From: an uncultured Acidobacteriota bacterium
Lineage (GTDB): Bacteria > Acidobacteriota > UBA6911
DNA length: 64,000 nt
Assembly: GCA_963843575.1 (NCBI GenBank)
Contig: CAWJKZ010000013.1
Span: 128,001 to 192,000 of the forward strand
Direction: 5' to 3'
Position 1 is the stretch's first letter, and each line of letters opens with the position of its first letter. The notes beneath the pieces were generated by a model, which was given only the letters and a program-made list of their open reading frames with translations, made no database searches and was not told the DNA's origin. Shown piece by piece: positions 6,115 through 64,000 of this stretch. The position numbers and the translations under genes are program-made.

Positions 6115-6348
6115 CTTCAGGTTCTTCGAAAAGAAGTTTTGCCTGCCCGGAGCACGGCAAGGGCGCTCCGCATCCCGCGTGCGGGCCGTGGAGCAGGCCG
6201 GAGTTTCGGAACCGGCGCCACTCGTGCACGGGCGATCAGACGGCTGCTGACCTCATAGCGTATTCTGCCTGAAATCCCGACTCCTGGCTTCGTCCTTCTC
6301 ACACCACCGGGATCCTTGTGTCCAGGCGCGATGCGCCGGGACCCGGAC

Positions 6349-9309: not shown

Positions 9310-9759
9310 TTGTAGAACCCTGATCCTGCCGGTTGAGTCTAATTCCCGGCGCAAGCCCGCAGGCGGCCACAGGCCGCCGGTGCCGCAGGGAGGGGGGATC
9401 CCGCTTGCACCGATTCGGATCCAGTTAAAGCATGACGAGGCGCCGAGGCACCCACTCGGGCGTCCTGCCGGCACGTCGGGTGGCGGCGCACCCAATTTTT
9501 CGAGCGCATTATAAGCCGGATGGCGTCGATTTCGCAGTATTTAACCTCTTGCTCCGCGTGGCGGATGCCGATAGCCTCGGCAAGGCCATGTCCGGCGGGA
9601 AGTAGCAGGGAGGCGCTTCGGAACCCGGCGTCCGGGGACAAACCGCCACGACGCCGACCGGACAGGAGGTCGAGAAATGTACCAAAGTGGCGGGCGAATG
9701 TGGTAAGTAATGTTCGTGAAATATCCGGCCGACGCGCCGGGGTTGCACGTTGGCGGAAA

Positions 9760-11727
9760 ATGAAACTCTCGGTTGCGTTGTTTGTCTCGTCGCTCCTGCT
9801 CACTTCCCCCGGCATCACCCACGCCCAGACTGCGAAGCCCTCTCACTGGCTGCCCGTCTCGTGGCAGGCCGCCTTCAGTCGCCGTGACACTGCTGACGGG
9901 TTTGTCTTCGGCGGCAAGATGTGGCTCAGCAACGGGTACTACTGGGATGGCGAGAATCGCTCCAACAGGGATCTGTGGTCTTCTGCGGACGGCAAGCTGT
10001 GGACGCTCGTAAACGGTGCCACCCCCTACGACGAGTTCAGTCAGATGACGGTGTTCAACAACATGATGTGGGCCGTCGGGGACAGCGTGTGGCTCTCCAA
10101 CGACGGCGTCCGCTGGTTGGAGGTGAACCCGCAGACCCCTTTCGGGCTGCGGCCATACGGCGAGCTCGTGGTTTACGACGGCAAAATGTGGCTGCTCGGG
10201 GACGGAAGCGACGTCTGGTATTCGTCCGACGGCACCCGCTGGACCTGCGCCACCGCGTCCGCGCCGTACGGCAACCGCAGCGGCGCAGCGGTCGTCGTGT
10301 TCGCCGGGAAGATCTGGGTCATGGGCGGCCGCACCAACGGGGCCAATACCCCCCCGGAGAGCTTCTACCCGGGCGTCACCACCTACAACGACGTCTGGTG
10401 CTCGGCGGACGGCGCGCACTGGACCCGCGTTTTAGAGCAAGCCCCCTGGAAGCCCCGGATTTGGAGCAAGGCCAAGTACTACCTCGACCGGATGTGGATC
10501 ATCGCCGGCTTCGACAACGTGGATGGCGCGAACCTGAATGACGTCTGGTACAGCGCCGACGGCGTAATCTGGACACGACTGGTTTCCTATTCGACGTTTT
10601 CTCCCCGGCACGAGGTCACTCCCTACGTCTTCGACGAGAGCCTCTGGGTAGTCGCAGGAAACGGCTGGCCGCTGCTGAACGACGTTTGGCGCCTGGACGT
10701 CGGCACGCTGTCCCCGGCACAGACGCAGCTTTCGGTGTCGTTCTCGGGCGCCGGATCGGGCACCGTGACCAGCACGCCTGCAGGCCTGCAGTGCGCGTCG
10801 GGATGCTCGAGCGCGTTCAACCTCGGCACGGTGGTGACGCTGAAGGCGACTGCGGCGCCTTGGTCGGTCTTCACGGGCTGGAGCGGGGAGGGCTGTAGCG
10901 GAACGGGTGACTGTTCCGTCGTCATGTCCGCGGCGCGGAACGTGGCGGCTGCTTTCGCCAGCGTTCCATTTGGGCCGCTGGATTTCAACGGGGACGGGCA
11001 ACCCGGCATCCTGTGGCGGAACGTGCGCACGGGCGAAGATTACGTGTGGTACATGAACGGCACGGACCGCTCCGGCGGAGAATCGCTGGAGACCGTCGCC
11101 GAGCGGGCGTGGGAGATCGTCGGCACGGGCGATTTCAACGGCGACCGTAAGCCCGACATCCTCTGGCGCAATTCAGCCACCGGACAGAATTACCTCTGGA
11201 TCATGAACGGGGTTTCCCGCTCGGCAGGAGCCTTGCTGGAGGCTGTGCCCGACACCGCCTGGCGCATCGAGGGCGTCGCCGACCTGAGCGGCGACGGCAA
11301 CCCCGACATCCTGTGGCGCAACGCGACCACGGGCGACAACTACGTCTGGTACATGAACGGCATCACGCGGGTGGGCGGCGAATGGCTCGAGCCCGTGCCC
11401 GATCTGAACTGGGAAATCACGGGCGTCGCGGAATTCAACGGCGACGGCAATCCCGACCTCCTGTGGCGCAATACAGCCACAGGCGAGGACTACGTCTGGT
11501 TCATGAAGGGCGTCTCCCGCTCAGGCGGGTGTTGGCTCGAAGCCGTCCCCGACCTGAACTGGAGAATCGTCGCGGTCGCGGACTACAACAGAGACGGCCA
11601 GACCGACATCCTCTGGCGCAACGCAGCAACAGGCGAAAACTACGTCTGGTTCATAAACGGCACCCTTCGCTTCGGCGGCTCGTTTCTCCTACCGGTTGCA
11701 GACCTGAACTGGCACATCGCACCCTAG
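9760..11727 (+). CDS. Secreted Kelch-like propeller + InlB-B-like domain + FG-GAP/VCBS repeat protein
   Basis: Signal peptide MKLSVALFVSSLLL; repeated KMWLxG / NDVWxSxDG blades; GSGTVTSTPAG..FTGWSG..C domain; five DFNGDGxPDILWRN repeats. Confidence 0.78.
   Translation: MKLSVALFVSSLLLTSPGITHAQTAKPSHWLPVSWQAAFSRRDTADGFVFGGKMWLSNGYYWDGENRSNRDLWSSADGKLWTLVNGATPYDEFSQMTVFNNMMWAVGDSVWLSNDGVRWLEVNPQTPFGLRPYGELVVYDGKMWLLGDGSDVWYSSDGTRWTCATASAPYGNRSGAAVVVFAGKIWVMGGRTNGANTPPESFYPGVTTYNDVWCSADGAHWTRVLEQAPWKPRIWSKAKYYLDRMWIIAGFDNVDGANLNDVWYSADGVIWTRLVSYSTFSPRHEVTPYVFDESLWVVAGNGWPLLNDVWRLDVGTLSPAQTQLSVSFSGAGSGTVTSTPAGLQCASGCSSAFNLGTVVTLKATAAPWSVFTGWSGEGCSGTGDCSVVMSAARNVAAAFASVPFGPLDFNGDGQPGILWRNVRTGEDYVWYMNGTDRSGGESLETVAERAWEIVGTGDFNGDRKPDILWRNSATGQNYLWIMNGVSRSAGALLEAVPDTAWRIEGVADLSGDGNPDILWRNATTGDNYVWYMNGITRVGGEWLEPVPDLNWEITGVAEFNGDGNPDLLWRNTATGEDYVWFMKGVSRSGGCWLEAVPDLNWRIVAVADYNRDGQTDILWRNAATGENYVWFINGTLRFGGSFLLPVADLNWHIAP
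10981..11724 (+). repeat. Intragenic tandem repeat, about 150 bp x5 (FG-GAP/VCBS units)
   Basis: Recurring gacatcctctggcgcaa and tacgtctggt..atgaacggc units at roughly 150 nt spacing. Confidence 0.8.
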
Positions 11728-11735
11728 GATTTTTT

Positions 11736-11858
11736 GGAGTGCGGCGCCTTGGCGCCGCCTTCAACTACGTCCCAGGGCCGAATGCCGGGCGCCTCGGCGC
11801 CGACCTGCGAGATGGCGTCGGCAACCTCAGGTTGCGGCGGCGCCGAGCCTCCGCACTA
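11736..11858. repeat. REP-like palindrome pair (GGAGTGCGGCG family)
   Basis: ggagtgcggcgccttggcgccgccttc with a degenerate inverted partner gcggcggcgccgagcctccgcact, between convergent genes. Confidence 0.6.
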
Positions 11859-11872
11859 GCGGCCCAATTGTT

Positions 11873-13000
11873 TTAATCGTACCGCCGGGTGTACTTCATA
11901 TAAAAGCTCTTCGGTACCAGGTCTGCCTTGTACATGCACCAGAAGAGAGGTTTCATCCTTTCAAACCGCTTCTTGTAGGTGGGGTAGTCCCGGTGGGTCT
12001 TCGCCGGCAACCCCATCAGCCTCTCGAACTCTTCCTCCGACAGGTCCAGCCGCTTGTAGATTTCCTGCAGGATGCTGTGGTCAAAAGGAAATGGCTCCCG
12101 TATCCGGCACAGAGCCTCGTCCCGTGAGATCTGTCCGGACCGGGCGAGCGCGGCGTACTCGCACCGGCGCAGGTCGATGCGATATTTCCTGGGCAGAAAG
12201 TAGTTGTTGGCAAAATACGCCGTGCGGTTCTCCATGTGATGGCCGCCGTACCACTGCCACCCCAGCTCCTTTGCCAGGAACGCCTTGATCTCCTCCTTGC
12301 GGTAATCGATGTAGTAAAGCGGCCGGATCTTCCGGATGCCGTCGAGCACCGTCCACTTGAGCCATTTTCCCATCCAGAGGTTCGGGAAGGTGCGCATCGG
12401 GACAGTACCGAACATACGGTGGACAGCCTGTATGTACCTCGCGTCCATGTAGACCCACCCATGCGGCGTGATCCCCTCTGTCCGGAACGAGTGCCCTTCG
12501 AAGACCCACTTCACCCGGTATTTCGCCGCGGCGAGGTAATGAGTGGTCGCCAGCCCTATGTCGGCAGGCGCATCCACTTCGGGAACGGAGGCTCTCAGAA
12601 AAGCCCTGAAGATGTCGCAGTATTCGCGGTTGTCGACCACGTGGGTGAACAGGTCCACGTTCAGACGCCGCAGCACCGTCTGGATGTTCTCCACGGCCGT
12701 TTTGGAGTTCCAGGTGTTGTCGAAGTGGGCGGCGAGGGGGCGCAGACCCAAGTCCTTGGCCAGGTACAGCAGGTAGGACGAATCGGTGCCGCCGCTGACC
12801 CCGACCACAACGTCGTACGCTCGCCCCTGGCCGTCCCTCTTGATGCGTTGGGCCAGCGCCTCGAGACGCTTTCTTCCTTCCGGACCGGTCGGATACTCCC
12901 GGTCGAGCTGATCGTGCTGGTGGCAGTAGTTGCAGACCCCCGCGGCGTCGAAGCTTATGTAGGGGATCTCGTCATCGTAAACGCATCTGGAACAAATCAT
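11873..13000 (-). CDS. N-acetyl sugar amidotransferase (WbpG-like), copy 1
   Basis: CxxC..CxxC N-terminus, PP-loop SGGTDS, HFDNTWNS and WQWYGGHHMEN motifs. Confidence 0.88.
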   Translation of the reverse strand: MICSRCVYDDEIPYISFDAAGVCNYCHQHDQLDREYPTGPEGRKRLEALAQRIKRDGQGRAYDVVVGVSGGTDSSYLLYLAKDLGLRPLAAHFDNTWNSKTAVENIQTVLRRLNVDLFTHVVDNREYCDIFRAFLRASVPEVDAPADIGLATTHYLAAAKYRVKWVFEGHSFRTEGITPHGWVYMDARYIQAVHRMFGTVPMRTFPNLWMGKWLKWTVLDGIRKIRPLYYIDYRKEEIKAFLAKELGWQWYGGHHMENRTAYFANNYFLPRKYRIDLRRCEYAALARSGQISRDEALCRIREPFPFDHSILQEIYKRLDLSEEEFERLMGLPAKTHRDYPTYKKRFERMKPLFWCMYKADLVPKSFYMKYTRRYD

Positions 13001-13019
13001 GCCGTCGGGCGTCCCTTCG

Positions 13020-14246
13020 TCAACGGAGGTCGTGGTCGCGGGTCGGCCCGTCCATAGTCGAGCGCCCCCGGTTCAGAAAGATATCGGTCCAACTCAGTAT
13101 CCGGGTGCTGCTGCGCAGCCGGGGAGGAAAACCGGCGATGATGCGGTCGCCGAACGACGCGCTCATCACGAACAGGCAGTCCGGGGGATTGTCGACAAGG
13201 TCCGCCCGGGATTCAATCGGAGTGCGCCACCCGGGGAAAAAGCACCCCTTGAGGCTCGGGTCGTCATCGAAGAAGCGCAGCGAGCGCACCTCCTGCCCTG
13301 CCATCGACAGCAGGTTGACTGCTCGGCCGGGGACGTACACACCCAGGCTTTCGCGGGCCCGGTTGAGCTTGTCGACATAACCTCTCACGAATGAAACCGA
13401 CTCCTCGACCTTTATCCTATAGCGGCGTGCGGCGGCTGCACGCTGCCGCACGCGTTCTGCTGGGGGGGTGGCCGCCGTCCCGGTGCGGGCGGCAGCATAC
13501 AGTATCTTGCTGATGTCGGGCTTGACGATCTGGATGGACTGGAATCCGCAGAAGCGCAGCACGTCTTCGAGCGTGGTCGCCGTGAGATAGCTGAAGTGTT
13601 CGTGAAAAAGGATCGAAGGGTCCCCCGCCTCGATATAGTCCTCCTCGTCCTCGACCGAGAGAAAAAGCCACCCGTCCGGTTTCAGGGCGCCGCGCACGGA
13701 GATGAGGGCCTGGATCGGATCGTAAAGGTGTTCGTACACCATGTACAGCGCGACCGCGTCGAAGGGTCCTGGGGCGGATTCGGATGGGAAGAAGTCCCGC
13801 ACGACGCGCAGCCCGAGACGCTCGGCCCCCGCCTGGCCGTGGGCCCCCGGCTCGATACCGCACACCTCGGCGCCCAGATCCCGGAAACGCGACAACAGGT
13901 AGCCCTTGCCGCAGCCGATTTCGAGCATCTCAAGCCCCTGCAGGGAATTCCGGCGCGCGGCGGACTGGACGAAGCGGAGGAAATGCTCGGTGTTGCCCCT
14001 GCCCGTCTCGCTGTCGTCGGCTGCCCCGGCCATAACGGAGCCGGCCCTATAGGCTTTCTCCAGGATCCCCCGTTGTCCGTCGCGCATCGCCTGGACGAGC
14101 AGTCCCGTGTCCGGGTCGACCGCGAGCGAGAAATCGAGGACGTCGGGAAATTCCGGTGCATTGGTGGCGTTGCGCGTAATGGAGAAAACGAATGGGAGGG
14201 CGCCCACCTTCCAGTAGAATGGATACTCCGCAGCGGTTCGGGTCAT
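13020..14246 (-). CDS. Class I SAM methyltransferase, NDP-sugar C-methyltransferase-like
   Basis: LEIGCGKG, GIEPG and HEHFSY motifs; C-terminal DDDPSLKGCFFPG..PI domain. Confidence 0.72.
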   Translation of the reverse strand: MTRTAAEYPFYWKVGALPFVFSITRNATNAPEFPDVLDFSLAVDPDTGLLVQAMRDGQRGILEKAYRAGSVMAGAADDSETGRGNTEHFLRFVQSAARRNSLQGLEMLEIGCGKGYLLSRFRDLGAEVCGIEPGAHGQAGAERLGLRVVRDFFPSESAPGPFDAVALYMVYEHLYDPIQALISVRGALKPDGWLFLSVEDEEDYIEAGDPSILFHEHFSYLTATTLEDVLRFCGFQSIQIVKPDISKILYAAARTGTAATPPAERVRQRAAAARRYRIKVEESVSFVRGYVDKLNRARESLGVYVPGRAVNLLSMAGQEVRSLRFFDDDPSLKGCFFPGWRTPIESRADLVDNPPDCLFVMSASFGDRIIAGFPPRLRSSTRILSWTDIFLNRGRSTMDGPTRDHDLR

Positions 14247-14290
14247 AATGCTCGACAAAGCGGTCTGCCTGATTTCACGGGGCGTAACCC

Positions 14291-15193
14291 CTATCCCTCG
14301 AGTGCGGGCCGCGAATGCGATTTTTTCATCGCCAGGGCAAGCGACCGGAGTGCCTCCCCGAGCGGCGCCTGGGGCCGGTAGCCCAGATCCCGACGCGCTT
14401 TTTCGGAAGAGTAGCGCGCGCGGAAGGTCTCCTGCGGATCGTCGCCCCGGAATACCACCTCAACGCTTCGCCCGGACACCTGGCGGCAGAGGTCGGCGAG
14501 AGCGCGCATGCTGATCGCCTCCCCCGTCAGGTTGATGGCCCCCTCCGCCCCGCAGGACAGTGCGAGGGAGACCGCGCGGGCGACATCCTCCTCGCGGACG
14601 AAATCCTGGGTGCGGCCGCCGGATCCCCACACTTCTATCCGGTCTTCAAACAACGCCTGGCGCATGAACCTGGTGACTACCGTAGCCACCCTCTGACTCG
14701 GTCCGAACGGGGCCGAAATCCTCAGGTGGCATGCCCGCACCCCCTGCGGTTTCAAAACCGCGTCGAACAGCAGCTCGCAGGCGAGTTTGCTGATCCCGTA
14801 CAGGCTCTCAGGGGCGGACATTGTTTCGGTGGCCTCCGACATCTCGCACGATCTCCCGTAGACGGCGCAGCTGGACAGATGCACCAGCCGTCCGACCTGC
14901 TGACGCCGCATCCAGAAGGACAGGTTGAGGGCCACCTGCTGATTATGGATCAGCACCCGATCCTCCGGGCAATGGTTGGGCACTAAGGCCGCGGCGTGGA
15001 CGACCGCGTCGAGAGGCAGCACCGGGGTGAGCGCCTCATACTGATCGCTGCGCTCGAGGTCTATCGTCACGTGCCCGGCCTCCGCATCGCTGCCGCGCAC
15101 GTCTGCCCCGAAGACAGAGTGACCCTCGGCCCGGAGACCTCGTCCGATCACGCCTCCCAGGAATCCTCCGGATCCCGTCACCAGCACCCTCAA
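14291..15193 (-). CDS. NAD-dependent sugar epimerase/dehydratase
   Basis: TGSGGFLG, SSCAVYG and YGISK (YxxxK) motifs. Confidence 0.88.
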   Translation of the reverse strand: MRVLVTGSGGFLGGVIGRGLRAEGHSVFGADVRGSDAEAGHVTIDLERSDQYEALTPVLPLDAVVHAAALVPNHCPEDRVLIHNQQVALNLSFWMRRQQVGRLVHLSSCAVYGRSCEMSEATETMSAPESLYGISKLACELLFDAVLKPQGVRACHLRISAPFGPSQRVATVVTRFMRQALFEDRIEVWGSGGRTQDFVREEDVARAVSLALSCGAEGAINLTGEAISMRALADLCRQVSGRSVEVVFRGDDPQETFRARYSSEKARRDLGYRPQAPLGEALRSLALAMKKSHSRPALEG

Positions 15194-48042: not shown

Positions 48043-48263
48043 ATCTTATTTATTCAATTGACCACTTATCCCGGATGGGCCGCGAACATCGTCGCGGGCG
48101 ACCGGACCCAGCAGCCGGCCGCCTTCCCACTTGACACTTTAGCGCGCCAGTTCATCCCATCGCGCACGCGGCGGGGTGATATGCTTGGCTGGCCGCAGAA
48201 GGCGATTCGGAGCATCGGCGGGTGCCGATGCTCCGCCGAACTCTACATGGAGGACAGCTGACG

Positions 48264-51084
48264 ATGCCCGGGTATGAGCCGCAAGCCATTGAGCTGAAAT
48301 GGCAGCAATTCTGGGAACGGAACAAAACGTTTCGCGCGCTCGAGGATACCAGCCTGCCGAAGCTCTATGTGCTCGACATGTTCCCTTACCCTTCCGGCGA
48401 GGGGCTGCACGTCGGCCACCCCGAAGGGTACACCGCGACCGACATGTACTGCCGGTTTCAGCGGATGCGCGGCTACAACGTCCTGCACCCGATGGGCTAC
48501 GACGCTTTCGGCCTGCCCGCGGAGCAGTACGCCATCCAAACCGGGACGCACCCGAGGATGACCACCGAACGCAACATCGCGAACATACGGCGCCAGATCA
48601 AGCAGCTGGGTTTCAGCTACGACTGGGACCGCGAGCTGGCGACGACCGATGTCGGGTACATGCGGTGGACACAGTGGATCTTCCTGGTGCTGTTCGACAC
48701 CTGGTACGATCCGGACTTCGAGTGGGTGGCGGCCGACGGCAGGCAGCGCCGGGGGAAGGGTCGGCCCATCGCGGAGTTGCCGATCCCGGAGGCCGTTGCC
48801 GCGGCGGGAGCCGAGGCGCGTACGTCGCTACCAGGACTCGTTTCGCCTGGCGTACCAGGCCGAGTCTCCCGTGAACTGGTGCCCCGCACTCGGCACCGTC
48901 CTCGCCGACGAAGAGGTGATCAACGGACGCTCCGAGCGCGGCGACCACCCCGTGCAGCGCATCCCGCTGCGCCAGTGGATGCTGCGCATCACCGCCTACG
49001 CCGACCGGCTCGTCGAAGACCTCGACGAGCTGACGTGGCCGGAGCCGATCAAGGAGATGCAGCGCAACTGGGTCGGGCGCAGCGAGGGGGCGGAGGTGGA
49101 TTTCTACGCCGGCACCGCCGGCGCCGGATACGAGGCGTGGCGTGCGGCGCGAGCCGCAAAAGGATATCCTGGAGCGCGCTGGCGTCGATGCGATCCGCGT
49201 TTACACGACCCGGCCGGACACGCTCTTCGGCGCCACCTACATGGTGCTCGCGCCCGAGCATCCGCTGGTCGACCGGATGACCACCGCCGAACACAAGGGC
49301 GAAGTCGACGCCTACAGGAACCGGGTCGCGACCATGAGCGAAGAGGATCGCATCGCCGGACGCGGCGAGAAGAGCGGCGTCTTCACCGGCGGCTTCGCGA
49401 TCAATCCCGTCACCAACGAAGCAGGTCCCGATCTGGATCGCGGACTACGTCCTGATCAGCTACGGCACCGGCGCCATCATGGCGGTTCCCGGTCACGACC
49501 AGCGCGACTTCGAATTCGCGTCGAAGTTCGGACTGCCCGTCCGGGCCGTGGTCATGCCCCCGAAGAGCTGGCTGGAAGTGCGCCATGCCACCGTCGAGGA
49601 CTTCGGGCGGCGGGTCGGCGAATTGACCGACTCCTTCGTCGACGAGGGCACCGCGATGAACTCCGCGAACCCGCAGGTCTCGCTCGACGGCCTGCCGACC
49701 GCGGAGGCCAAGAAACGCATCACAGCGTGGCTGGTCGCCGCCGGTCTCGGCCGTGGCGCCGTGAAGTACAAGCTGCGCGACTGGCTTTTCAGCCGGCAGC
49801 GCTACTGGGGCGAGCCGATCCCCATCCTGCACGAGCTGGACGCCTCAGGGAAGCCCTCCGGCCTCACCCGGGCCGTCGCCGAATCCGACCTGCCGGTGCT
49901 GCTTCCCGAAATGGAGGATTTCAAGCCGACCGGACGGCCGGGCGGGCCGCTGGAAAAGGCGACCGACTGGATCCGAGTGCACCGCGACGGCCGCGACTAC
50001 CTGCGCGAGACCAACACGATGCCCCAGTGGGCGGGTTCGTGCTGGTACTACCTCCGTTTCTGCGATCCGCGAAACCAGGATGCGGCCTGGGATCCGGCCA
50101 AGGAGCGCTACTGGATGCCGGTCGACCTCTACGTCGGCGGCGCCGAGCATGCCGTCCTGCACCTGCTCTACGCCCGGTTCTGGCACAAGGTGCTCTTCGA
50201 CCGCGGGCACGTCTCGACCGCCGAGCCGTTCCGGCGCCTCATCAACCAGGGGATGATCCTCTCGATCACCTACCGCACCGCCGAAGGACGGGTCGTTCCC
50301 TACACGAAGATCGATTTTACCGACGGCAAGGCGCTCCACGCCGACAACGACGAGGAACTCCAGGGCGTCACCGAGAAAATGTCCAAGTCGCGCGGCAACG
50401 TGATCCCGGTCGATGTCCCGCTCAAGCAGTACGGAGCGGACACGACCCGGCTCTACGAGATGTTCATGGGCCCGCTCGAGGTGACCAAGCCCTGGAGCAT
50501 GCAGGGCGTCGAGGGGATCAGCCGCTTTCTCAACCGGGCCTGGCGACTGATCATCGACGAGGATGCCGACTCGATGGGCTTGAGCCCGCGCATCGTCGAA
50601 CAGCCGGCGACGGAAGAGCAGCTCCGGGTTCTGCACAAGACTATCCGGACCGTCACCGAGGACATCGAAGCGCTGCGCCTGAACACCGCCATCAGCCGGC
50701 TCATGGAGTTCGTCAACTACTTCACTTCCCAGGCGGCCCGACCCCGTGCCTGCATCGAGCCGTTCGTCCTGATGCTCGCGCCTCTGGCCCCCCACATCGC
50801 CGAGGAACTGTGGCAGGCGCTGGGCCATGCCGAGTCGCTCGCATACGCGCCCTGGCCCGTATTCGACGAGCGCTACACCCGGGAGGATACGATTGCGGTT
50901 GCCGGTTCAGATCAACGGGAGGCTCCGCGGCCACGTCACGATGCCCGCATCGGCCGGCAACGAACAAATACGCGAGGCGGCCCTGTCCGACCCGAAGATT
51001 CAGCGGTACATTGAGGGGAGCACGATCCGCAAGGTGATCGTGGTCCCGGGTAAACTGGTCAGCATCGTGATCGGTCAGAAATAA
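48264..51084 (+). CDS. leuS: Leucine--tRNA ligase, interrupted by four apparent +1 frameshifts (~48819, ~49171, ~49420, ~50898)
   Basis: [49 protein letters not shown] and PVQINGRLR motifs spread in order over five successive reading segments. Confidence 0.93.
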
Positions 51085-55954: not shown

Positions 55955-57212
55955 TCAGGCGCGGGCGCGCCTGTCCATTTCCCGTATCTTCAGGACGAGC
56001 AGGACAATCAGCGCGGCAATGATCACTACGGAAACCGCCAGCCCCTTGCGTCTGTAGCTGAGTTCGCCCAGCGCGTTCCAGCCGCTGGACTCCGATGCCG
56101 CGGCGATCTTGTCTCCCTCGGCCAGCACTTTAACGAGCGCGGCGGGGTCGAACCGGTGGATCTCCACGCGGGCCCGTATCAGGTGATCCCGTCCCTCCGC
56201 CAGATCGTACAGCGGCCGGCTGACTTCCATCCCGGCGCGTTCCGCCCGTTTGAGCACTCCCTCCGCCGAACTCAGGTGGTTCCGCAGCCGGACGATTCCC
56301 TCCTTCATCTCGACGGCGGCCTTGTGTCCCGGGGTGCCGCTCTCGTGGCAGGTGGCGCAGGTTGCCGGTTCCTGTCCTCCGAGCATGTCGTCCGACGTGG
56401 CGGTGACAGCATGGTGCTCGTGACATGTCGAGCAGGCGAGCAGTTGCTGGTCGGCGAAGGCTTTCTTGTGAGGACTCGCCCCGAACAGGTCCCACTGGCT
56501 GACGTGGCACTGCCCGCAGACGTTGGCGACCGTGTCGACGCCGGGGGGGGCTGCCCCGTGGTTGCCGTGACAGTCGTTGCAGGTCGGGGCCGACATGTCG
56601 CGCTTCCTGATCAAGGCCTCGCCGTGGACACTCTTGATGTACTGCTCCATCTGGTTGGTGGGGATGCCATAGCTCGACATCCGCTTCGGGTCGGCGTGGC
56701 ACCGGCCACAGGTTGCCGCCACGTTCGTAGCGTACACGGGGCTGGTAGGGTTGGCCACGGCCTTCACGCCGTGGGCGCCGTGGCAGTCGATGCAAGTCGC
56801 CACGTTCGGATCCCCCGCCACATACTTCTTTCCGTGCACGCTCGTGAGGTATTCCGTGTATTGGTCGACCCGCGGCTGCGGGTTGTAGCGGCGCATGACC
56901 TCGGGCTTGCTGTGGCACGAGGCGCACAGCGCCGCAATCTGCCTGCGCTGCGGCCGGCCGATGAAACCCTTCGCCCGGCTCATCGAATCCTCGGCGCTTC
57001 CGGTCTCGATCCCCACGGTGGGGTCGCCCCCGTGGCAATTGTTGCAGGACAGCACCTTTCTGAAAGTGGATGTCCTGGACCGACAGGCGGACCGGGTCCT
57101 GCATTTCGGCGTTCAGATCGCGGTGGCACCTGACACAGGTGCTCTCTGCAACGCTCGCACCCTGCTGAACCGGAGCAACCCCGACCAGCAATACGAGAAC
57201 GACTTGCCACAT
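55955..57212 (-). CDS. Membrane-anchored multiheme cytochrome c (9 CxxCH) with an apparent +1 frameshift at ~57053
   Basis: Signal peptide and CVRCH in one frame; eight more CxxCH motifs, a helical stalk and a C-terminal TM in the next frame. Confidence 0.85.
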
Positions 57213-57223
57213 GGGAATGAGTC

Positions 57224-58294
57224 CTATGTCAGATACGCGAGCGCCGAGAGCGCCACGATGTAGACAAGGGCGGCCAACCCCGCGACCGCAAGCAGGTTCG
57301 CGCGGCCTGGTTCGCGCCTGGGCGCCGCGACAAATGGCGTTATGATCAGGAGCAGCCCGAGCACCCCGAAAAACAGGATGCCCAGCACCTCACCGTCCAC
57401 TCCCAAAATCTTGCCGGGAATGTATTTGAGCGTCTGAAACATGAAGACGAAATACCACTCGGGCTTAATGCCGGCCGGGGCCGGGGCGAAGGGGTCGGCC
57501 TTTTCCCCGAGTTCCCAGGGAAAGATGGCAGCGAGAGACGCCAGCACGGCGATGGCGGCGAGCCAGCCGACCAGGTCGCGCATCAGGAAGTCGGGAACGA
57601 ACTTCATCCGGGGTACGCTCTTTTCGTCGACCGAAGAGGGCGTGCTCATGCCGTGCTTCTGCACCAGGTAGACATGCAAGGCGAGGACGACCGTCGTGAG
57701 AGCCGGCAGTATGGCCACGTGGAAGCCGAAAAACCGCGTCAGGGTGGCTCCGGTTACCTCGTCTCCGCCGCGCAGAAAGCGCAGCAGGAAAGGTCCCGCC
57801 ACCGGCACGACACCCGCGATGTCGGTCCCGACCTTCGTCGCAAAAAAGGCCAGTTTGTTCCAGGGCAGGAGATAGCCGCTGAACCCGAAACCCAGGGCCA
57901 GAAACAGCAGCAGGGCGCCCGAGACCCAGGTCAGCTCGCGCGGACGCCGAAAGGCCCTCAGGAAGAGCGTGCTGAACATGTGGACGAAGGCGGCGGCGAT
58001 CATCAGGTTGGCCGACCAGCTGTGCACGGAACGGATCAGCCAGCCGAATTGAACCTCGGTCATGATGAACTGCACGCTCTCGAACGCCGCCTCCGCACTC
58101 GGGCGGTAGTAGAGGAGCAGCAGGATTCCCGTACCCACCTGGACGCAGAACAGGAACAGCGTCATGCCGCCGAAGTAATACCAGAGCGAGTGGCGATGCC
58201 GGGGCACTTCCTTGTGCTCGATGAGTTCCCGGGCGACGCGCCATCCGAGGCGTTCTTCCAGCCAGTCTCCCAGGCGCGGTGCGCTGGAGTTCAC
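57224..58294 (-). CDS. Cytochrome b/b6 subunit of a Rieske/cyt b complex (subunit IV fused)
   Basis: Four heme-b His ligands (RSVHSW..VHM, FHV..LHV), GYLLPW and IKPEWYF motifs. Confidence 0.93.
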
Positions 58295-58297
58295 GTC

Positions 58298-58741
58298 TTA
58301 TCCTCGCGAAACGATGATTTCCTGCCCGCGCACGTTGACTTGGAACTGCTCGAGCGGACGCGGCGGCGGTCCTGAAACGTTTTTCCCGCTGAGGTCATAA
58401 CGACCGTTGTGACAGGCGCACCAGATCATTTTTTCGTCGGCGCGGAACTGGACCGTGCAGTCGAGATGGGTGCACGTCGCGCTGAAGGCCCGGTACTCCC
58501 CGTCCGCCGTTTGAACGAGGATGCCTGGCTTGCTGCCGAACTTGAATATGCGGCCCTCGTTGGGTTTGAGATCGGTCGTCTTTGCGGCGACCACCGAATT
58601 CGCGCTCGACTCCACGACCCGCGGAGGGATCATGAAGCGGACGACCGGGTAGAGGATTGCACCGAGCGTTGCGACTGTTCCCGTCCCCAGAAGATAGTTC
58701 AATATCGAACGACGGCCAGGCGTAGGATTGGGAAGCGTCAT
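58298..58741 (-). CDS. Rieske [2Fe-2S] protein
   Basis: RR-containing N-terminal anchor; CTHLDC and CACH boxes; SGPPPRPL motif. Confidence 0.93.
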
Positions 58742-58844
58742 ATCGGAACCCGCATGCAAAGCACCATGGATTCGCTTCGTTTCGCCACTTTAGGGGCAAA
58801 GGGGTCGAAGGGTCAAGAGGCAAAGGACGTCGTCAGGCACCCGC

Positions 58845-58967
58845 CTCGTGTCCTGGGAGTTGTCCATACACCCACCGTGCGCCTTTTAACCCAATCCGGC
58901 GTCCGAGCGGAGACCATCGACGGCCGCTTTGGTCAGTCGACTTTCGGCGCAGGCCACCGGGAGAGAG
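58845..58967. other. Candidate structured non-coding element in the divergent intergenic region
   Basis: Nested complementary segments tcctgg/ccggga, tgcgcc/ggcgca, tccg/cgga and tcgacggcc/ggtcagtcga; no family recognised. Confidence 0.3.
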
Positions 58968-59278
58968 TAGCAGTAGCCCTCAGCCGAGAAGATATTTATA
59001 ATTCACCCCCTGACAAATCGCGAGCGCCGGCAGTGTCGAAACACTGCCGAATAGCCAAAAGCTTAATCGATTGTGCTATATGCCCCAACCTGGCCGACTG
59101 GGGAGAAATTCACCGTTAGCTGTTGAATAGTGCAACATGCAATTCTACTGAACTTTACGTCGATTCGGAGCCGGGTGGCTGCGAGCGGTGACGAAATTGC
59201 TTTTTATCCACCGAACTTCCCATTGGTTTTTGCAGTTGAACAAGCCGCTGCCCAGGCGGCCACGGAGGGCACGACATT

Positions 59279-61324
59279 ATGACTATGAGGGCGAAGAGAC
59301 CGACGGCGGTTCTTCTCTTTCTTTCTTTTTTCTCGATGGCGGCGCTAGGAATTGCCGCGTTTGTGAATGACTCGGAGAAGGTTTACAGTGCCATGGAGAA
59401 GGCCTTTTATCTCTCTCCTGAGGATGGTATCTGGATCCGCCCGGGTGTGAATCTAGCGATCCAGAACATCACGATACCGGCAGACCGCAAGCCGGTGGTT
59501 ACGTTCAGGATCACCGACGACAAGGGGCAGGGGTTGGATCGGACGGGTACGCTCACTCCCGGCACCGTCACGACCAGCTGGGTTTTCGCCTACATCCCGG
59601 AGAATGCCACGCAATACGTCGCCTACACGGTCCGAGCCCAGAAGAGCCCGATCACGAACGTGACGGAAATTCAGGCGTCGAGCGACCAGAACGGCAAGTA
59701 CGCCAGCCTGGGCGACGGGACCTACACCTACACATTCGGCACGACGCTCCCGGCCGCGTACGACACGACCGCGACCCACACGCTGGGCGTCTACTCGGTG
59801 CGTGACCTGCGCGAGTTCGGCCTGAGCCGCTACATCACCAACGTGCTGAACACCTTTGTGCCGGACGGCCGCGCGGTCACGAAGACCCGCGACGTCGTGC
59901 GCACCGCGGCCTGCAACCAGTGCCACGACCCGCTCGGGCTTCACGGCGGTTCGCGCCAGGACGTGCTGCTCTGCAACCTCTGCCACACGCCGCAATCAAA
60001 GGATCCTGACACGGGCAACACCGTCGACATGAAGGTGATGACGCACAAGATCCACATGGGCGCGGACCTGCCCAGCGTGCAGGCCGGGCAGCACTACCAG
60101 ATCATCGGCAACCAGCAGAGCGTCAACGATTACTCCGACGTCGTCTTCCCGCAGGACATTCGCAATTGCACGACCTGCCACAAGGACACGACCCAGGTCA
60201 ACAACTGGCTGCTCAACCCGACCCGGGACACCTGCGGCTCCTGCCACGACAACATCGACTGGACGAGCGGCAAGAACCACGTGGCCGGCCCCCAGCCTGA
60301 CGACCGCTACTGCGCCAATTGCCACTGGCCGGAGAGCGACTACGAGTACGACGCGACCATCGCGGGCGCTCACGTCCCACCCTACAAGTCGAAGCAGCTG
60401 TTCAACCCCAAGTTTGAAATGCTCGAAGTGACCAACACGGCTGCGGGCCAGTCCCCGACCGTCAAGTTCAAGGTCACGGATAAGACCGGCAAGGCAATTG
60501 CCCCCGCCATCATGGGCGGGACCTCGGGCCGCCTGTCACTGACCCTTGCAGGCCCGACCTCTGATTACCGCTGGTACCTGACCGAGGCGGCTAACACCGC
60601 GGAGTACGCCGACGGCGTGGCCACCTACACCTTCAAAGGAGTGATCCCGGCGACGGCCACGGGCACCTACGCCGTGGAGGCGGAGGGCTATCTTAACGCC
60701 ACTCTCAATCCCGGTACCGAGAAGCAGTTGAGCTACCGCGACGCATTTGATAACGTTGTAAAGCCGTTCGCGGTGACCGGAACGCTGGAAAACCGGCGCA
60801 CTGTGGTCGATCTGGCGAAGTGCAACAAGTGCCACGACAAACTGCAGCTGCACGGCAACAACCGGAACCAAATCGAAGCGTGCGTGGTTTGCCACAACCC
60901 GGCGACCACCGACGCGGCCCGCAGGCCCGCGGCAGCCCTCCCCGCGGAAGCGATCGACATGAAGATCATGATTCACAAGATCCACACGGGGGCGGAGCTG
61001 GCGAACGATTACACCGTCTACGGCTTCGGCAACACCGCAATCAACTTCAACGAAGTCGGTTACCCGGGCGACCGCCGCAATTGTCTCGGCTGTCACGTCG
61101 GGACTTCCTACCAGGTGCCCCTTGCTGCCTCGGTCACCTCGTCCACGACGCCGCGCAGCTTCTGGGATCCCATGAAGCCCACGTCGGCGGCGTGCCTGGG
61201 GTGCCACGACTCTGTGGACGCGGCCGCGCATGCGTTCGTCAACACGGCGACGTTCGGAGAGGCCTGCTCGGTCTGCCATAAGGAAGGTGCGGACGCTGCG
61301 GTGACAAAGGTCCACGCCCGATAG
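59279..61324 (+). CDS. OmcA/MtrC-family decaheme cytochrome c
   Basis: Ten CxxCH motifs in two clusters of five, each preceded by a beta-rich domain (PVVTF.ITD, PTVKF.VTD); HKIH motifs; GGAGG RBS. Confidence 0.88.
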   Translation: MTMRAKRPTAVLLFLSFFSMAALGIAAFVNDSEKVYSAMEKAFYLSPEDGIWIRPGVNLAIQNITIPADRKPVVTFRITDDKGQGLDRTGTLTPGTVTTSWVFAYIPENATQYVAYTVRAQKSPITNVTEIQASSDQNGKYASLGDGTYTYTFGTTLPAAYDTTATHTLGVYSVRDLREFGLSRYITNVLNTFVPDGRAVTKTRDVVRTAACNQCHDPLGLHGGSRQDVLLCNLCHTPQSKDPDTGNTVDMKVMTHKIHMGADLPSVQAGQHYQIIGNQQSVNDYSDVVFPQDIRNCTTCHKDTTQVNNWLLNPTRDTCGSCHDNIDWTSGKNHVAGPQPDDRYCANCHWPESDYEYDATIAGAHVPPYKSKQLFNPKFEMLEVTNTAAGQSPTVKFKVTDKTGKAIAPAIMGGTSGRLSLTLAGPTSDYRWYLTEAANTAEYADGVATYTFKGVIPATATGTYAVEAEGYLNATLNPGTEKQLSYRDAFDNVVKPFAVTGTLENRRTVVDLAKCNKCHDKLQLHGNNRNQIEACVVCHNPATTDAARRPAAALPAEAIDMKIMIHKIHTGAELANDYTVYGFGNTAINFNEVGYPGDRRNCLGCHVGTSYQVPLAASVTSSTTPRSFWDPMKPTSAACLGCHDSVDAAAHAFVNTATFGEACSVCHKEGADAAVTKVHAR

Positions 61325-61330
61325 GTTCTT

Positions 61331-62260
61331 ATGTTCACAAAACGTGTTCTGCAGATCACGCTTTTGTTTTCCACCCTGTTCGTCCTGGCGGGGATTCTGA
61401 CCGGCGCGCAAGCGCCGGCGCAGAATCCCCCCCAGGGGGCCGCCCCGGCGACCGGGAGCGTCAATAACGAGGACTGTGCCGTTTGCCACGAGGACGTCGC
61501 GAAGGCATTCGACAAGAACCCCCACGCGGTGCTCGAAAAAAGCCCGAAGTTCAGCATGAAGAACTCGTGCGAATCGTGCCACGGCCCCGGGGAAGCCCAC
61601 GCGAGCAACGACGGCGACCGCACCAAGATCATCACGTTTCGGGATCAAGCCAAAAAGCTCTACAACGAGCAGTGCCTGACCTGCCACCGGAAGCACCCCG
61701 AGGTGAACGGTTTCGCGGGGAGCGCGCACTCGAAGTTCGGGCTTTCCTGCACCGATTGCCACCGCGTCCACCGCCCGGCCCCGACGACTCGCCTGCTGCA
61801 GCAGCCGGTTAACAACCTGTGCTTCAGCTGCCACGTGCAGAGCCGCACCGATTTCTCGAAGCCCTTCCATCACCGGGTGCGCGAAAACTCGATGCGTTGC
61901 ACCGATTGTCATCAGCCCCACAGCGGCATCGATTCGCGTCAGGTCCGGACCACCAGCTTCGGCGACTCTCCCTGCTTCAAGTGCCACACCGACAAGGAGG
62001 GCCCGTTCGTATTCGAGCACGCTCCGGTCGTGATACGCGATTGCCAGGCCTGCCATCAGCCCCACGGGTCGAACAACTCCAAGATGCTCGTGCGCGCCAC
62101 GGTGCGGGCGGTTTGCCTCGAATGTCACACGACCAGCAACGGTGTCCTTGGGGCCTCTCCGCCGGCATTCCACGACATCCGCAGCCCCCGGTTCCAGAAT
62201 TGCACTACCTGTCACGTGAAGATTCACGGCTCAAACGCCGACGTGAAATTCCTCAGGTGA
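61331..62260 (+). CDS. DmsE/MtrA-family periplasmic decaheme cytochrome c
   Basis: Signal peptide; ten CxxCH motifs; CESCHGPG, GPFVFEHAPV and CHVKIHGSN signatures. Confidence 0.92.
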   Translation: MFTKRVLQITLLFSTLFVLAGILTGAQAPAQNPPQGAAPATGSVNNEDCAVCHEDVAKAFDKNPHAVLEKSPKFSMKNSCESCHGPGEAHASNDGDRTKIITFRDQAKKLYNEQCLTCHRKHPEVNGFAGSAHSKFGLSCTDCHRVHRPAPTTRLLQQPVNNLCFSCHVQSRTDFSKPFHHRVRENSMRCTDCHQPHSGIDSRQVRTTSFGDSPCFKCHTDKEGPFVFEHAPVVIRDCQACHQPHGSNNSKMLVRATVRAVCLECHTTSNGVLGASPPAFHDIRSPRFQNCTTCHVKIHGSNADVKFLR

Positions 62261-62280
62261 GGACACAGGAGCTAACAACC

Positions 62281-64000
62281 GTGATGCGCATGGCCCGCCA
62301 ACATATGTCGCCTGCTGCCCGACCCTCGTATTTGACCGCCGCGGCGCTCATGATGCTGCTGGCTGTCGTTGCGGCGCCCCTGTCAGGACAGTCCCCCCCG
62401 CCGCAGGAACAGAAGCAGGAGCCTCCGAAGGAGTCCGCCAAGGAGCAGTTCCGTGCGGACAGGGAGGGGCAGATCCTGGCCCCGACCCAGACCCCCTCCA
62501 TTCCATCCGATGAAGGCTTCACCCTTGGCGCCTACCAGGGTCATGCCGACGTCGAACTCGGATATCGCTGGCGTTCGGACGTCTCGGGTAACACCGATGT
62601 CTACCGGAGCATGGTCAACCTCGGGAGCGGCCCGAAACTGCTTCGGTCGAACTTCTCGTTGCGCTCCAACTACGGTGCCGGTACCCTGTTCGACCGGTTG
62701 GACGTTTCCGCAAACAGCTGGGGCGGCGACCCGTACAACACCCTCCGCATCAGCTTCGGCCTTTCGGACAAGTACGAATTTCGCGCGAACTACCGCAACC
62801 TGAACTACTACAACTATCTGCCGCAGTATGCCAACCCGCTGCTGCTCACCCGCGGCATCGCCTTCGGGCAGCACAGCCTGAATGTCACCAACCGCACGAG
62901 CGACTTCGAATTGAAGCTGTTCCCCAACAGCAGGGTCCGCCCCTTCGTGGGCTATTCGCGCAGTTCCGGCTTCGGCCCCGGCTTCACCACCGCGGAGTTC
63001 ACGGGGAACGAATTCCTGGTGGAAACGAACTGGCGCTACTCGTCGGACGACTATCGGGGCGGCGTCGAAATCTCGCTCCCCAAGACCGTCTTGACAGTCG
63101 AGCAGGGCTATAGGACCCTGCGCAACGACACCGGCGTCGATTCCGGCCCGAACAACGGCAACAACCCCAATGCGAGGTTCCTCGGAAACCCGGTCTTCCT
63201 GACCTCGCTCGACCGCGGCTACCACGACCGCACTACCCTGCCGTTTACCAAACTGGTAGCGAAATTCACCCCTTTCCGGTCGCTGAAGGTCACCGGCCGG
63301 TACATCTACTCCATGGCCGACCTCGACTCCAGTTACGGCGAGGTCACGTCGGGAGCGTTCGCCAACCTCGCGGAACGGCTGGTTTACCGGGCTGGTCTGG
63401 ACAACTTCGACACCCACGCCAAGCGGCCGGACCACAACGGCAGCTTCCTGGTCGAATTCTCACCCTTCAGCAGGCTGACCCTTCTCGACCAGTTCGAGAG
63501 CCGCAACAATCACACGAGCGGGTCCGCCCTGCTGGCGTCGATCTTCTACGGCTCACGCTCGTTGGCCGGACCCGGTCCGACGAGCGATGCCACGATCACC
63601 GACCTCGCCCGCTCGTACCTCGCGTTCAACCGGCTGAGCAACCTTGCCGAGGCCGAGTTCGACCTCCGGTGGGGCTTTGCCGTCCGCGGCGGCTACCGGT
63701 ATACCAATGCGGATGCCACGGTGGGCGACGCGGAGGGGAGTGACCTCATCGAAGGGGAAAGTTCCTCATACTCGCAAAACACGGGCATCGTCGGGGTGAC
63801 CTACCGGAAAGCCCGCTGGCTCCGCCTTGGTTTCGATTACGAGAAGAACGACACGAACGGCACGCTTACCCGGACCGATCTCCTGAATTTCGATCGTCTC
63901 CGGTTCGACTGGCGCGTCGGCTCCTGGCATCACTTCAGCACCAGCGGAAGGATCTGGGGTCTGCGCAACAGCAACGACCAGAGCGACATCGATCTCCAAT
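62281..64000 (+). CDS. MtrB/PioB-like outer-membrane beta-barrel (partial, runs off the right edge)
   Basis: Open frame absent from the ORF track because no stop lies in the window: signal peptide, then ELGYRWRSDVSGNTDVYRSMVNLG, WGGDPYN and alternating aromatic beta-strands; AGGAG RBS; directly after the MtrA-like gene. Confidence 0.78.
   Translation, partial: MMRMARQHMSPAARPSYLTAAALMMLLAVVAAPLSGQSPPPQEQKQEPPKESAKEQFRADREGQILAPTQTPSIPSDEGFTLGAYQGHADVELGYRWRSDVSGNTDVYRSMVNLGSGPKLLRSNFSLRSNYGAGTLFDRLDVSANSWGGDPYNTLRISFGLSDKYEFRANYRNLNYYNYLPQYANPLLLTRGIAFGQHSLNVTNRTSDFELKLFPNSRVRPFVGYSRSSGFGPGFTTAEFTGNEFLVETNWRYSSDDYRGGVEISLPKTVLTVEQGYRTLRNDTGVDSGPNNGNNPNARFLGNPVFLTSLDRGYHDRTTLPFTKLVAKFTPFRSLKVTGRYIYSMADLDSSYGEVTSGAFANLAERLVYRAGLDNFDTHAKRPDHNGSFLVEFSPFSRLTLLDQFESRNNHTSGSALLASIFYGSRSLAGPGPTSDATITDLARSYLAFNRLSNLAEAEFDLRWGFAVRGGYRYTNADATVGDAEGSDLIEGESSSYSQNTGIVGVTYRKARWLRLGFDYEKNDTNGTLTRTDLLNFDRLRFDWRVGSWHHFSTSGRIWGLRNSNDQSDIDLQ

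Follow-up and report, generated by a model that had tools for sequence, protein, structure and literature searches.

A Rieske/cytochrome b operon with a nonahaem cytochrome beside an MtrCAB-like conduit in an uncultured Acidobacteriota bacterium: a candidate route from quinol to the cell surface

Extracellular electron transfer (EET), in its textbook form, leaves the quinone pool through CymA, ImcH or CbcL, none of which is known to run a Q cycle. The locus described here raises the question of whether a Rieske/cytochrome b complex might also hold this position. It was found in a stretch of 64,000 nucleotides, hereafter the window, which covers bases 128001-192000 of contig C13 (830,890 bp) in the assembly of an uncultured Acidobacteriota bacterium (6.68 Mb, 27 contigs, 88% complete); the nearest public records are metagenome-assembled genomes (MAGs) of uncultured Acidobacteriota. 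An operon for a Rieske protein, a cytochrome b and a c-type cytochrome with nine haems (nonahaem cytochrome) stands there back to back with an operon for an MtrC-like decahaem cytochrome, an MtrA-like decahaem cytochrome and a beta-barrel. An earlier note on this DNA had read the two arms as a candidate pathway from quinol to the surface. We put at about 0.55 the probability that the six genes are indeed the two halves of one extracellular electron-transfer route, running from quinol to the surface through a Q-cycle-type entry complex. As a genomic module, the association is real and recurrent: it joins an MtrC-bearing conduit with a divergent barrel to a Rieske/cytochrome b complex whose nonahaem subunit has a predicted fold that may resemble that of hydroxylamine oxidoreductase (HAO). 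Contigs of this assembly, and the loci and genomes compared with it, are designated below by our C, L and G numbers.

Open reading frames (ORFs), translations and profile matches agreed with the earlier note on the six genes, their place and their arrangement in two divergent arms (Table 1). In profile searches, the Rieske protein matched PF00355 (52.7 bits) and the PetC-type transmembrane anchor PF25471 (TM_PetC, 38.3 bits). Both cluster boxes, CTHLDC and CACHNG, are legible in its translation, and its N-terminus is a twin-arginine signal anchor (motif GRRSIL); an ATG six codons inside the listed TTG is the likelier start. Cytochrome b matched PF00033 (177 bits), PF00032 (30.6 bits) and, over residues 242-303, TIGR01156 (41.6 bits), a b6-like N-terminal part being fused with a subunit-IV-like C-terminal part. 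Its best solved relative is a spinach-type cytochrome b6 (6rqf_I, 203 bits), with which both histidine pairs, i.e. the four ligands of haems bL and bH, were aligned. In the same alignment the haem-ci cysteine of the b6f/Firmicutes type is absent (WYYFGG, versus FYCLGG in cytochrome b6). The PEWY motif of the Qo site is present in the C-terminal part, as KPEWYF, and none of the operon proteins reached a curated b6f or bc1 equivalog cut-off in the profile search.

The third gene of this operon starts 11 nt past the cytochrome b stop codon, and its product, a cytochrome with nine CxxCH motifs, replaces the canonical third subunit, the single-haem cytochrome c1 or f. Cytochromes c1 and f have a C-terminal membrane anchor. 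The membrane-anchored nine-haem cytochrome of the earlier note stands as far as intact orthologues are concerned, in which the nine motifs and the transmembrane helix are seen, whereas the gene itself is broken in the assembly near 57055. Among the 33 homologues listed, 27 have nine CxxCH motifs, and nearly all have a C-terminal membrane helix.

On the other arm, the two decahaem cytochromes were identified as the earlier note had them, each with ten CxxCH motifs and a score above the curated cut-off. The MtrC-like protein reached 521 bits with TIGR03507 (cut-off 209), over profile positions 5-672 of 672, and 176 bits with PF22113; its motifs were counted by script, and it gave sequence matches to the solved MtrF, OmcA, UndA and MtrC. 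Shewanella MtrC has a lipoprotein signal with a lipobox cysteine. Here the signal/anchor sequence is without such a cysteine: there is none in the first ~200 residues, and the first one belongs to the first CxxCH. The MtrA-like protein reached 245 bits with TIGR03508 (cut-off 192) and matched chain A of the solved Mtr complex (6r2q_A) over residues 46-303 (E 1.5e-37). The genes follow one another as mtrC, mtrA and mtrB in one tight operon, with gaps of 6 nt and 20 nt.

The barrel gene extends 440 nt past the window end. No Pfam or NCBIfam match was obtained for its product, PF11854 (MtrB/PioB) included, even at E ≤ 1; PF11854 was touched by 2 of 22 homologues adjoining MtrA genes (best E 0.0015), and the profile of the barrel family had no match among Protein Data Bank (PDB) sequences at E ≤ 10. 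The AlphaFold model of the barrel (predicted local distance difference test, pLDDT, 75.5; predicted template modelling score, pTM, 0.70) is all-beta from residue 80, with ~26 strands as counted from DSSP elements. When it was compared with the PDB by Foldseek, the top match was MtrB (6r2q_B; E 4.7e-16, template modelling (TM) scores 0.61/0.67, 13% identity in the structural alignment), and the next one was found at E 1.1e-9 with a TM score of 0.40. Alignment of the barrel family with two canonical MtrB_PioB barrels by hhalign gave a probability of 91.5% (E 8.8e-7) over the C-terminal 306 columns. A language-model look-up, to be taken as a lead only, also grouped the barrel with MtrB/PioB clusters. 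Judging by its predicted structure, the barrel is a distant MtrB relative missed by the curated sequence model. The claim of an mtrCAB-like conduit in the Shewanella order is thus borne out for the fold of the barrel, as predicted, and for order, but not by any MtrB/PioB Pfam match, and the gene is incomplete in the window. Compared with Shewanella MtrCAB (PDB 6R2Q), the conduit is alike in gene order, in having MtrC and MtrA proteins that reach the curated cut-offs, and in the best structural match of its barrel; it differs by an MtrC without lipobox, by the lack of a CymA/NapC gene next to the conduit, and by a Rieske/cytochrome b module as the inner-membrane neighbour.

Table 1. Positions in the window of the two arms and of the region between them
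Feature	Position	Strand	Basis
Rieske 2Fe-2S subunit	58298..58759	-	PF00355 + PF25471
Cytochrome b, 356 aa	57224..58294	-	PF00033 + PF00032
Nonahaem c-type cytochrome, broken by 1-nt insertion	55955..57212	-	translations + intact orthologues
Divergent intergenic region, 519 bp	58760..59278		
OmcA/MtrC-family decahaem cytochrome, 681 aa	59279..61324	+	TIGR03507
DmsE/MtrA-family decahaem cytochrome, 309 aa	61331..62260	+	TIGR03508
MtrB-like beta-barrel, 719 aa	62281..64000 in window, ends at 64440-equivalent	+	predicted fold

The route that we propose would work as follows. Its inner half would be a Rieske/cytochrome b quinol oxidoreductase in which the nonahaem cytochrome replaces the single-haem c1 or f, its C-terminal membrane helix and helical stalk keeping it on the periplasmic side. 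In the outer half, the MtrA-like decahaem would be threaded through the MtrB-like 26-strand barrel, and the MtrC-like decahaem would sit at the surface. Quinol would be oxidised at Qo, and electrons would pass to the Rieske centre, along the nonahaem wire to MtrA and then MtrC, from which they would reach an external acceptor whose potential is fairly high (for example Mn(IV), chelated Fe(III) or humics), while the Q-cycle chemistry would release protons outside the membrane. What the sequences show is the identity of the genes, their intact redox-ligand motifs, the predicted folds and a clustering that recurs. We infer in this scheme the electron hand-over between the halves, from nonahaem to MtrA, as well as the direction of flow, energy conservation and proton translocation.

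Recurrence of the association was measured in three surveys. Two of them covered species-representative genomes, with MtrC as query (43 loci) or with the nonahaem protein as query (80 loci kept); the third was a phylum sample of 401 genomes, in which MtrC was scored at E ≤ 1e-100 or when its gene was in pieces, and a nonahaem homologue at E ≤ 1e-30. MtrC was found in 31 of the 401 genomes (29 by the E-value limit and 2 as fragmented genes). A nonahaem homologue was present in 20 of these 31 genomes, versus 82 of the 370 others; no test statistic is quoted, because related genomes are not independent. Both genes were on one contig in seven genomes, from four families, and in all seven they were within 0.35-16.1 kb of each other, on contigs of 0.1-3.2 Mb. 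Adjacency by chance was considered and dropped, in view of how close the two genes lie on shared contigs in four families. Among the nonahaem-query loci, Rieske and cytochrome b genes were adjacent in 27 out of 80; MtrC was found in 4 of those 27, an MtrA-like gene (at least 33% identity) in 7, and a barrel of the window type in 5.

A close relative of the locus, L008, has an MtrC protein 93% identical and a Rieske arm 87% identical at the DNA level (2416/2781 nt). Three gene orders were distinguished in Acidobacteriota. The arms are divergent in the window, L008 and L051; Rieske, cytochrome b, nonahaem, MtrC, MtrA and barrel genes follow one another on one strand in L149 and L150; and in L146, L147, L148, L089, L099 and L100, MtrCAB and extra multihaem cytochromes come before Rieske, cytochrome b and nonahaem. 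L094 shares this third order, its sequence ending after the barrel. In another acidobacterial locus, L056, MtrA and a canonical MtrB_PioB barrel (293 bits) are divergent from the Rieske operon. FastTree trees of MtrA, cytochrome b, nonahaem and Rieske proteins all recovered a clade made of the window, L051 and L145, with supports of 0.93-0.999.

The association extends to other phyla. In four loci from Chloroflexota MAGs (L030, L032, L035 and L042), cytochrome b, a split subunit IV, nonahaem, Rieske and one or two OmcA/MtrC genes are found on one strand. The latter are bona fide members of their family (442-448 bits), and neither MtrA nor the barrel was found in the four loci (tblastn, E ≤ 1e-5), which would fit cells without an outer membrane. 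Of the comparative results, this Chloroflexota arrangement without any MtrA or barrel match is the main new one. In Eisenbacteria, L057 has MtrA-like, MtrB_PioB (244 bits), Rieske, cytochrome b and multihaem cytochrome genes on one strand. The adjacency is therefore not peculiar to this genome, as the earlier note needed: it recurs in several Acidobacteriota lineages, in three gene orders, and in Chloroflexota and Eisenbacteria. More distant nonahaem homologues occur in Planctomycetota loci, three of which (L059, L061, L063) have them beside Rieske and cytochrome b. In other phyla the Rieske operon is also found beside CbcL-like genes and NapC/NirT-domain multihaem (ImcH-like) genes. One Ignavibacteriota locus, L067, carries on one strand (3490-14808) genes for a CbcL-like protein, an ImcH-like multihaem protein with a NapC/NirT domain, Rieske, cytochrome b, the nonahaem cytochrome and one further multihaem cytochrome, and two genes of no family; the whole resembles a supercluster for electron transfer.

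That the arms are functionally linked is supported, and their coupling is not obligate. On the coupling the earlier note went too far, and several observations weigh against a single, dedicated route. No nonahaem match (E ≤ 1e-30) was obtained in 11 of the 31 MtrC genomes; one of these, G063, is a 99%-complete genome from the same family as the window, and its MtrC shares 68% identity with the one described here. Where both genes were present, they were on different contigs in 13 genomes out of 20. At least four of those 13 assemblies (G033, G305, G336 and G353) have at most 30 contigs, and since some of the 13 consist of 10-30 contigs, the genes are there truly apart. Rieske and cytochrome b were present in the fetched flank of 6 of the 43 MtrC-query loci (L008, L024, L030, L032, L035 and L042; L031 has a cytochrome b at the locus edge), and in 2 of the 20 MtrC loci whose flanks reach 9 kb or more on each side. 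A conduit component was found within 10 kb in 8 of the 27 loci with Rieske, cytochrome b and nonahaem. Rieske centres lie above the potential of most Mtr haems, so that a Q cycle suits only fairly high-potential acceptors, or else a reverse run for electron uptake. The nonahaem gene is frameshifted, and read depth is zero at the bin 56970-57183 in four public runs. Finally, the literature searched yielded no experimental work on a complex of this kind.

Other possible exits from the quinone pool add to this side of the balance. Near the locus, the earlier note was right: no CymA/NapC, ImcH or CbcL gene is present in the window, PF03264 has no match anywhere on contig C13 (its matches are only on C15, C17, C10 and C14), and the sole PF01292 (b561-type) match on C13 is sub-threshold and falls on the cytochrome b itself. 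Neither is there a cymA or imcH gene in the 8 kb beyond the right edge, where that note had allowed for one; past the edge lie a CDF transporter, a histidine kinase with XylR_N/V4R and PAS domains, a sigma-54 regulator and an FG-GAP protein. Over the whole genome, the exclusivity that it gave to the Rieske/cytochrome b complex was too strong. C15:128186-129895 (L138) encodes a NapC/NrfH-like tetrahaem domain (PF03264, 93.6 bits), C17 encodes two 9-haem proteins with an NrfH-like domain, and C10:348383-350612 (L135) encodes a 13-haem cytochrome followed in a neighbouring frame by a b561-type domain (PF01292, 43.9 bits), which by its domains is a candidate CbcL-like quinol oxidoreductase. C27 encodes an NrfD-like membrane protein fused to an octahaem cytochrome. 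The NapC/NrfH domain on C15 is in one frame with a formylglycine-generating-enzyme/PvdO-like (FGE-sulfatase-like) domain, an unusual fusion. At C18:110882-116577, two overlapping frames with 23 and 43 CxxCH are probably parts of a single giant multihaem cytochrome with ~60 haems that a frameshift has divided.

These observations are best accommodated, outside the proposed route, by a general-purpose quinol:cytochrome c oxidoreductase serving several periplasmic acceptors. MtrCAB would then be an occasional client, or would receive its electrons chiefly from the CbcL-like or NapC/NrfH-domain proteins that other parts of the genome encode, and the adjacency would reflect a respiratory gene island. 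Such a role would agree with the cytochrome b being the sole PF00033 match in the 88%-complete genome, with the nonahaem homologues of 82 of the 370 genomes without MtrC, with the 19 of 27 Rieske, cytochrome b and nonahaem loci that have no conduit component within 10 kb, and with the CbcL-like and ImcH-like neighbours of the operon in other phyla. However, this genome has a separate cluster resembling alternative complex III (ACIII), which adjoins CoxB and CoxA genes; given this cluster and a single cytochrome b, the aerobic chain needs no Rieske/cytochrome b/nonahaem complex. Moreover, all seven same-contig cases, from four families, fall within 16 kb, and the one-strand arrays of L149, L150, L057 and the Chloroflexota put conduit genes directly beside Rieske/cytochrome b. 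We thus regard a general-purpose complex as unlikely, though it is the alternative that survives best.

The conduit might also work inwards, taking electrons from Fe(II), reduced humics or a cathode, with the Rieske/cytochrome b complex reversed by the proton-motive force and reducing quinone. Acidophilic iron oxidisers have been proposed to run their bc1 complex in reverse, and the high potential of Rieske centres fits electron uptake. In addition, the loci with MtrA and MtrB but no MtrC by the Rieske/cytochrome b operon (L056, L057) resemble PioAB/MtoAB conduits. A closely comparable case has been published: Zixibacteria RBG-1 carries MtrAB genes clustered with those for multihaem cytochromes and for a PetAB complex (Castelle et al. 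2013, Nat Commun 4:2120, PMC3903129), and its authors favoured Fe(II) oxidation because no homologue of an extracellular cytochrome was present. By that published description, RBG-1 and the window are alike in gathering MtrA/MtrB homologues, Rieske/cytochrome b and multihaem cytochromes in one cluster, and in having a separate ACIII, which in RBG-1 is beside an aa3-type oxidase. They differ in phylum, in the barrel, which here falls outside the Pfam MtrB/PioB model, and above all in the full OmcA/MtrC decahaem of the window, whose absence was the very argument given for oxidation in RBG-1. Furthermore, RuBisCO was not found in the 88%-complete genome. The presence of an extracellular MtrC and the failure to find RuBisCO make us lean towards outward flow, and we judge a purely inward conduit rather improbable; mixotrophic or bidirectional use would be compatible with both points.

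The predicted fold of the nonahaem subunit raises another possibility. The L051 orthologue, which is intact and 69% identical, gave a structure model with a pLDDT of 88 and a pTM of 0.74, in which a haem domain leads into three long helices spanning residues 294-325, 331-353 and 356-413; the membrane anchor lies in the third. Its best structural matches belong to the HAO family: Kuenenia HAO 4n4j (VIA Z 11.1, rmsd 5.4, 278 residues aligned; a Z of ~11 is middling for helix-rich models), Brocadia HAO (Z 10.7) and hydrazine dehydrogenase (Z 10.1), before octahaem nitrite reductases and NrfA (Z 8-9). Besides, only about eight His or Met residues outside the nine CxxCH motifs are invariant or near-invariant in the alignment of nonahaem orthologues. 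The protein could therefore be imagined as an enzyme of the HAO or octahaem-reductase kind, the complex then serving as a quinol-dependent reductase or oxidase for some soluble compound of nitrogen or sulfur, with the conduit no more than its neighbour. We give this little credit: the Foldseek E-values are weak (1e-3 to 1e-2), Pfam, NCBIfam and PDB searches gave no sequence-level match to the HAO or NrfA families (the only PDB match of the orthologue by sequence is a marginal one to NrfB, E 0.016), all nine motifs are CxxCH, and the gene comes last, where Rieske/cytochrome b operons usually carry their c-type cytochrome gene. One of the invariant histidines, at position 352 of the L051 protein, is within the second stalk helix; as a possible haem ligand, it might fasten the stalk to the haem domain.

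There remains the state of the gene. As assembled, the multihaem ORF has 8 CxxCH motifs by script count, and the ninth (CVRCH) lies with the signal peptide in another reading frame, at 57053-57212. The gene is split near 57055 into 53 N-terminal codons (57053-57212) and 366 codons in the other frame (55955-57055). L008 is shorter by one T at ~57055 and continues in frame there, as HFQKGLSCNDCH, with breaks elsewhere in its nonahaem and cytochrome b genes, and the nonahaem genes of L051 and L145 are intact. On the window's own contig, leuS, a histidine kinase gene and the sigma-54 regulator gene are likewise split across frames. The leuS gene (48222-51037) is spread over at least three frames, which hold respectively the N-terminal catalytic region, the beginning of the editing domain, and the remainder of the editing domain with the anticodon-binding domain; such splitting of an essential gene points to frequent indel errors in the assembly. 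Because L008 is in frame at the site, orthologues are intact, and leuS and two regulator genes are split as well, the break is more likely an assembly indel than a pseudogene, and a dead inner-membrane half with a relic adjacency, which the 1-nt insertion at a site without coverage in four public runs would suggest, is in our view very improbable.

How far does such a complex depart from known systems? In anammox bacteria, Rieske/cytochrome b complexes have multihaem, HAO-like subunits, which the possibly HAO-like fold predicted for the nonahaem subunit would echo. We know of no description of multihaem complexes of the anammox or early bc type beside outer-membrane conduits. Early anaerobic bc complexes with multihaem subunits have been proposed (Dibrova et al. 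2013, as cited in PMC5317091), and the locus resembles both these and the anammox complexes in that a multihaem cytochrome would take the Rieske electrons in place of c1 or f.

The idea itself is not new, contrary to what the earlier note implied, as it has precedents at the gene level in Geobacter (2010) and in the Mtr/PetAB cluster of Zixibacteria RBG-1 (2013). In Geobacter sulfurreducens, the extHIJKLMNOPQS genes (GSU2930-2940) form a cluster for Rieske, cytochrome b and multihaem proteins with an outer-membrane porin-like gene next to it (Butler et al. 2010, PMC2825233; Jahan et al. 2018, PMC5877670); this cluster was proposed to oxidise quinol and connect it with the periplasm, and perhaps to add a further site of proton translocation. 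Like the window, it combines a Rieske protein (ExtO) and a cytochrome b (ExtP) with multihaem cytochromes, described in these papers as having 4 (2 CXXCH in Butler et al.), 5, 10 and 12 haems. The cytochrome b of the window scored 208 bits with NF040969 (ExtP; cut-off 290) and is thus not an ExtP orthologue; ExtQ is a separate membrane subunit in Geobacter, whereas its counterpart is fused in the window (NF040970, 16.6 bits versus a cut-off of 150). Also unlike the window, the cluster as described there has no MtrC or MtrA homologue, its ExtI is a small phosphate-porin-like protein rather than an MtrB-like one, and it has been linked to selenite and tellurite reduction. For Acidobacteriota, the nearest published clusters are the Group 5 Acidobacteriia mtrCAB, with 5 hits in Bryobacterales and unclassified Acidobacteriia (Baker et al. 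2022, mBio, PMC8805035). The passages of that survey on these clusters report no inner-membrane quinone oxidoreductase near them; in the window, a Rieske/cytochrome b/nonahaem operon is the direct neighbour of an acidobacterial mtrCAB, and no tetrahaem gene was found 3' of the barrel. A term search in the text of Zhong and Shi (2018) returned no mention of Rieske or bc complexes. For Acidobacteriota and Chloroflexota, a pairing of Rieske/cytochrome b with Mtr was not found described in the literature searched, subscription journals and supplements being outside the search.

Between the two arms, alignment with L008 and the more distant L051 revealed conserved blocks 5' of mtrC (~59140-59262). 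They comprise an inverted repeat TGTTG-N7-CAACA, AAAATTGCTT and, immediately before the mtrC start codon, a hairpin-like CCGCTGCCCAGGCGG; going by their sequence they could be an operator and an element of the 5' untranslated region. Two sigma-70-like sites are oriented towards the Rieske operon. A search for sigma-54 promoters was made because a sigma-54 regulator gene lies downstream; it gave no site in 58760-59278 at up to 2 mismatches to the consensus, and the 14 matches in the whole window are fewer than in shuffled sequence (mean 23.6). The kinase and sigma-54 response regulator genes, both split by frameshifts, are at 4314-7884 of L002 (window-equivalent 66314-69884), 2 kb 3' of the barrel; in L055, a sigma-54 regulator and a kinase with a protoglobin domain also adjoin the Rieske operon. 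The kinase/sigma-54 pair may regulate the module. As for expression, RNA contigs from two libraries of one sediment study match 59235-61250 with 95-100% identity, as they do portions of mtrA, which weakly suggests transcription of mtrC. For the Rieske/cytochrome b/nonahaem arm, a 23-nt partial piece of an RNA contig was all that was obtained, and contigs cannot show absence.

What the present analysis adds is a comparative case drawn more sharply and a better definition of the parts. Beyond the locus itself, it is conceivable, though we hold it only tentatively and below even odds, that Rieske/cytochrome b complexes with a stalk-anchored nonahaem subunit of HAO-like fold form a third, energy-conserving class of quinol oxidoreductases for EET beside CymA/NapC and ImcH/CbcL; they would be the missing inner-membrane partner of acidobacterial MtrCAB, and in Chloroflexota would hand electrons over directly to MtrC-type cytochromes. 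If the proposed route is correct, entry through a Rieske/cytochrome b complex would raise the energy yield per electron with external acceptors of high potential; if it runs in reverse, it would give electron uptake a defined uphill route. The Chloroflexota variant would be a natural test of direct feeding from the nonahaem cytochrome to MtrC-type cytochromes. For the Acidobacteriota, a phylum abundant in soils and sediments, this locus and its relatives provide a concrete candidate for the quinone oxidoreductase of MtrCAB.

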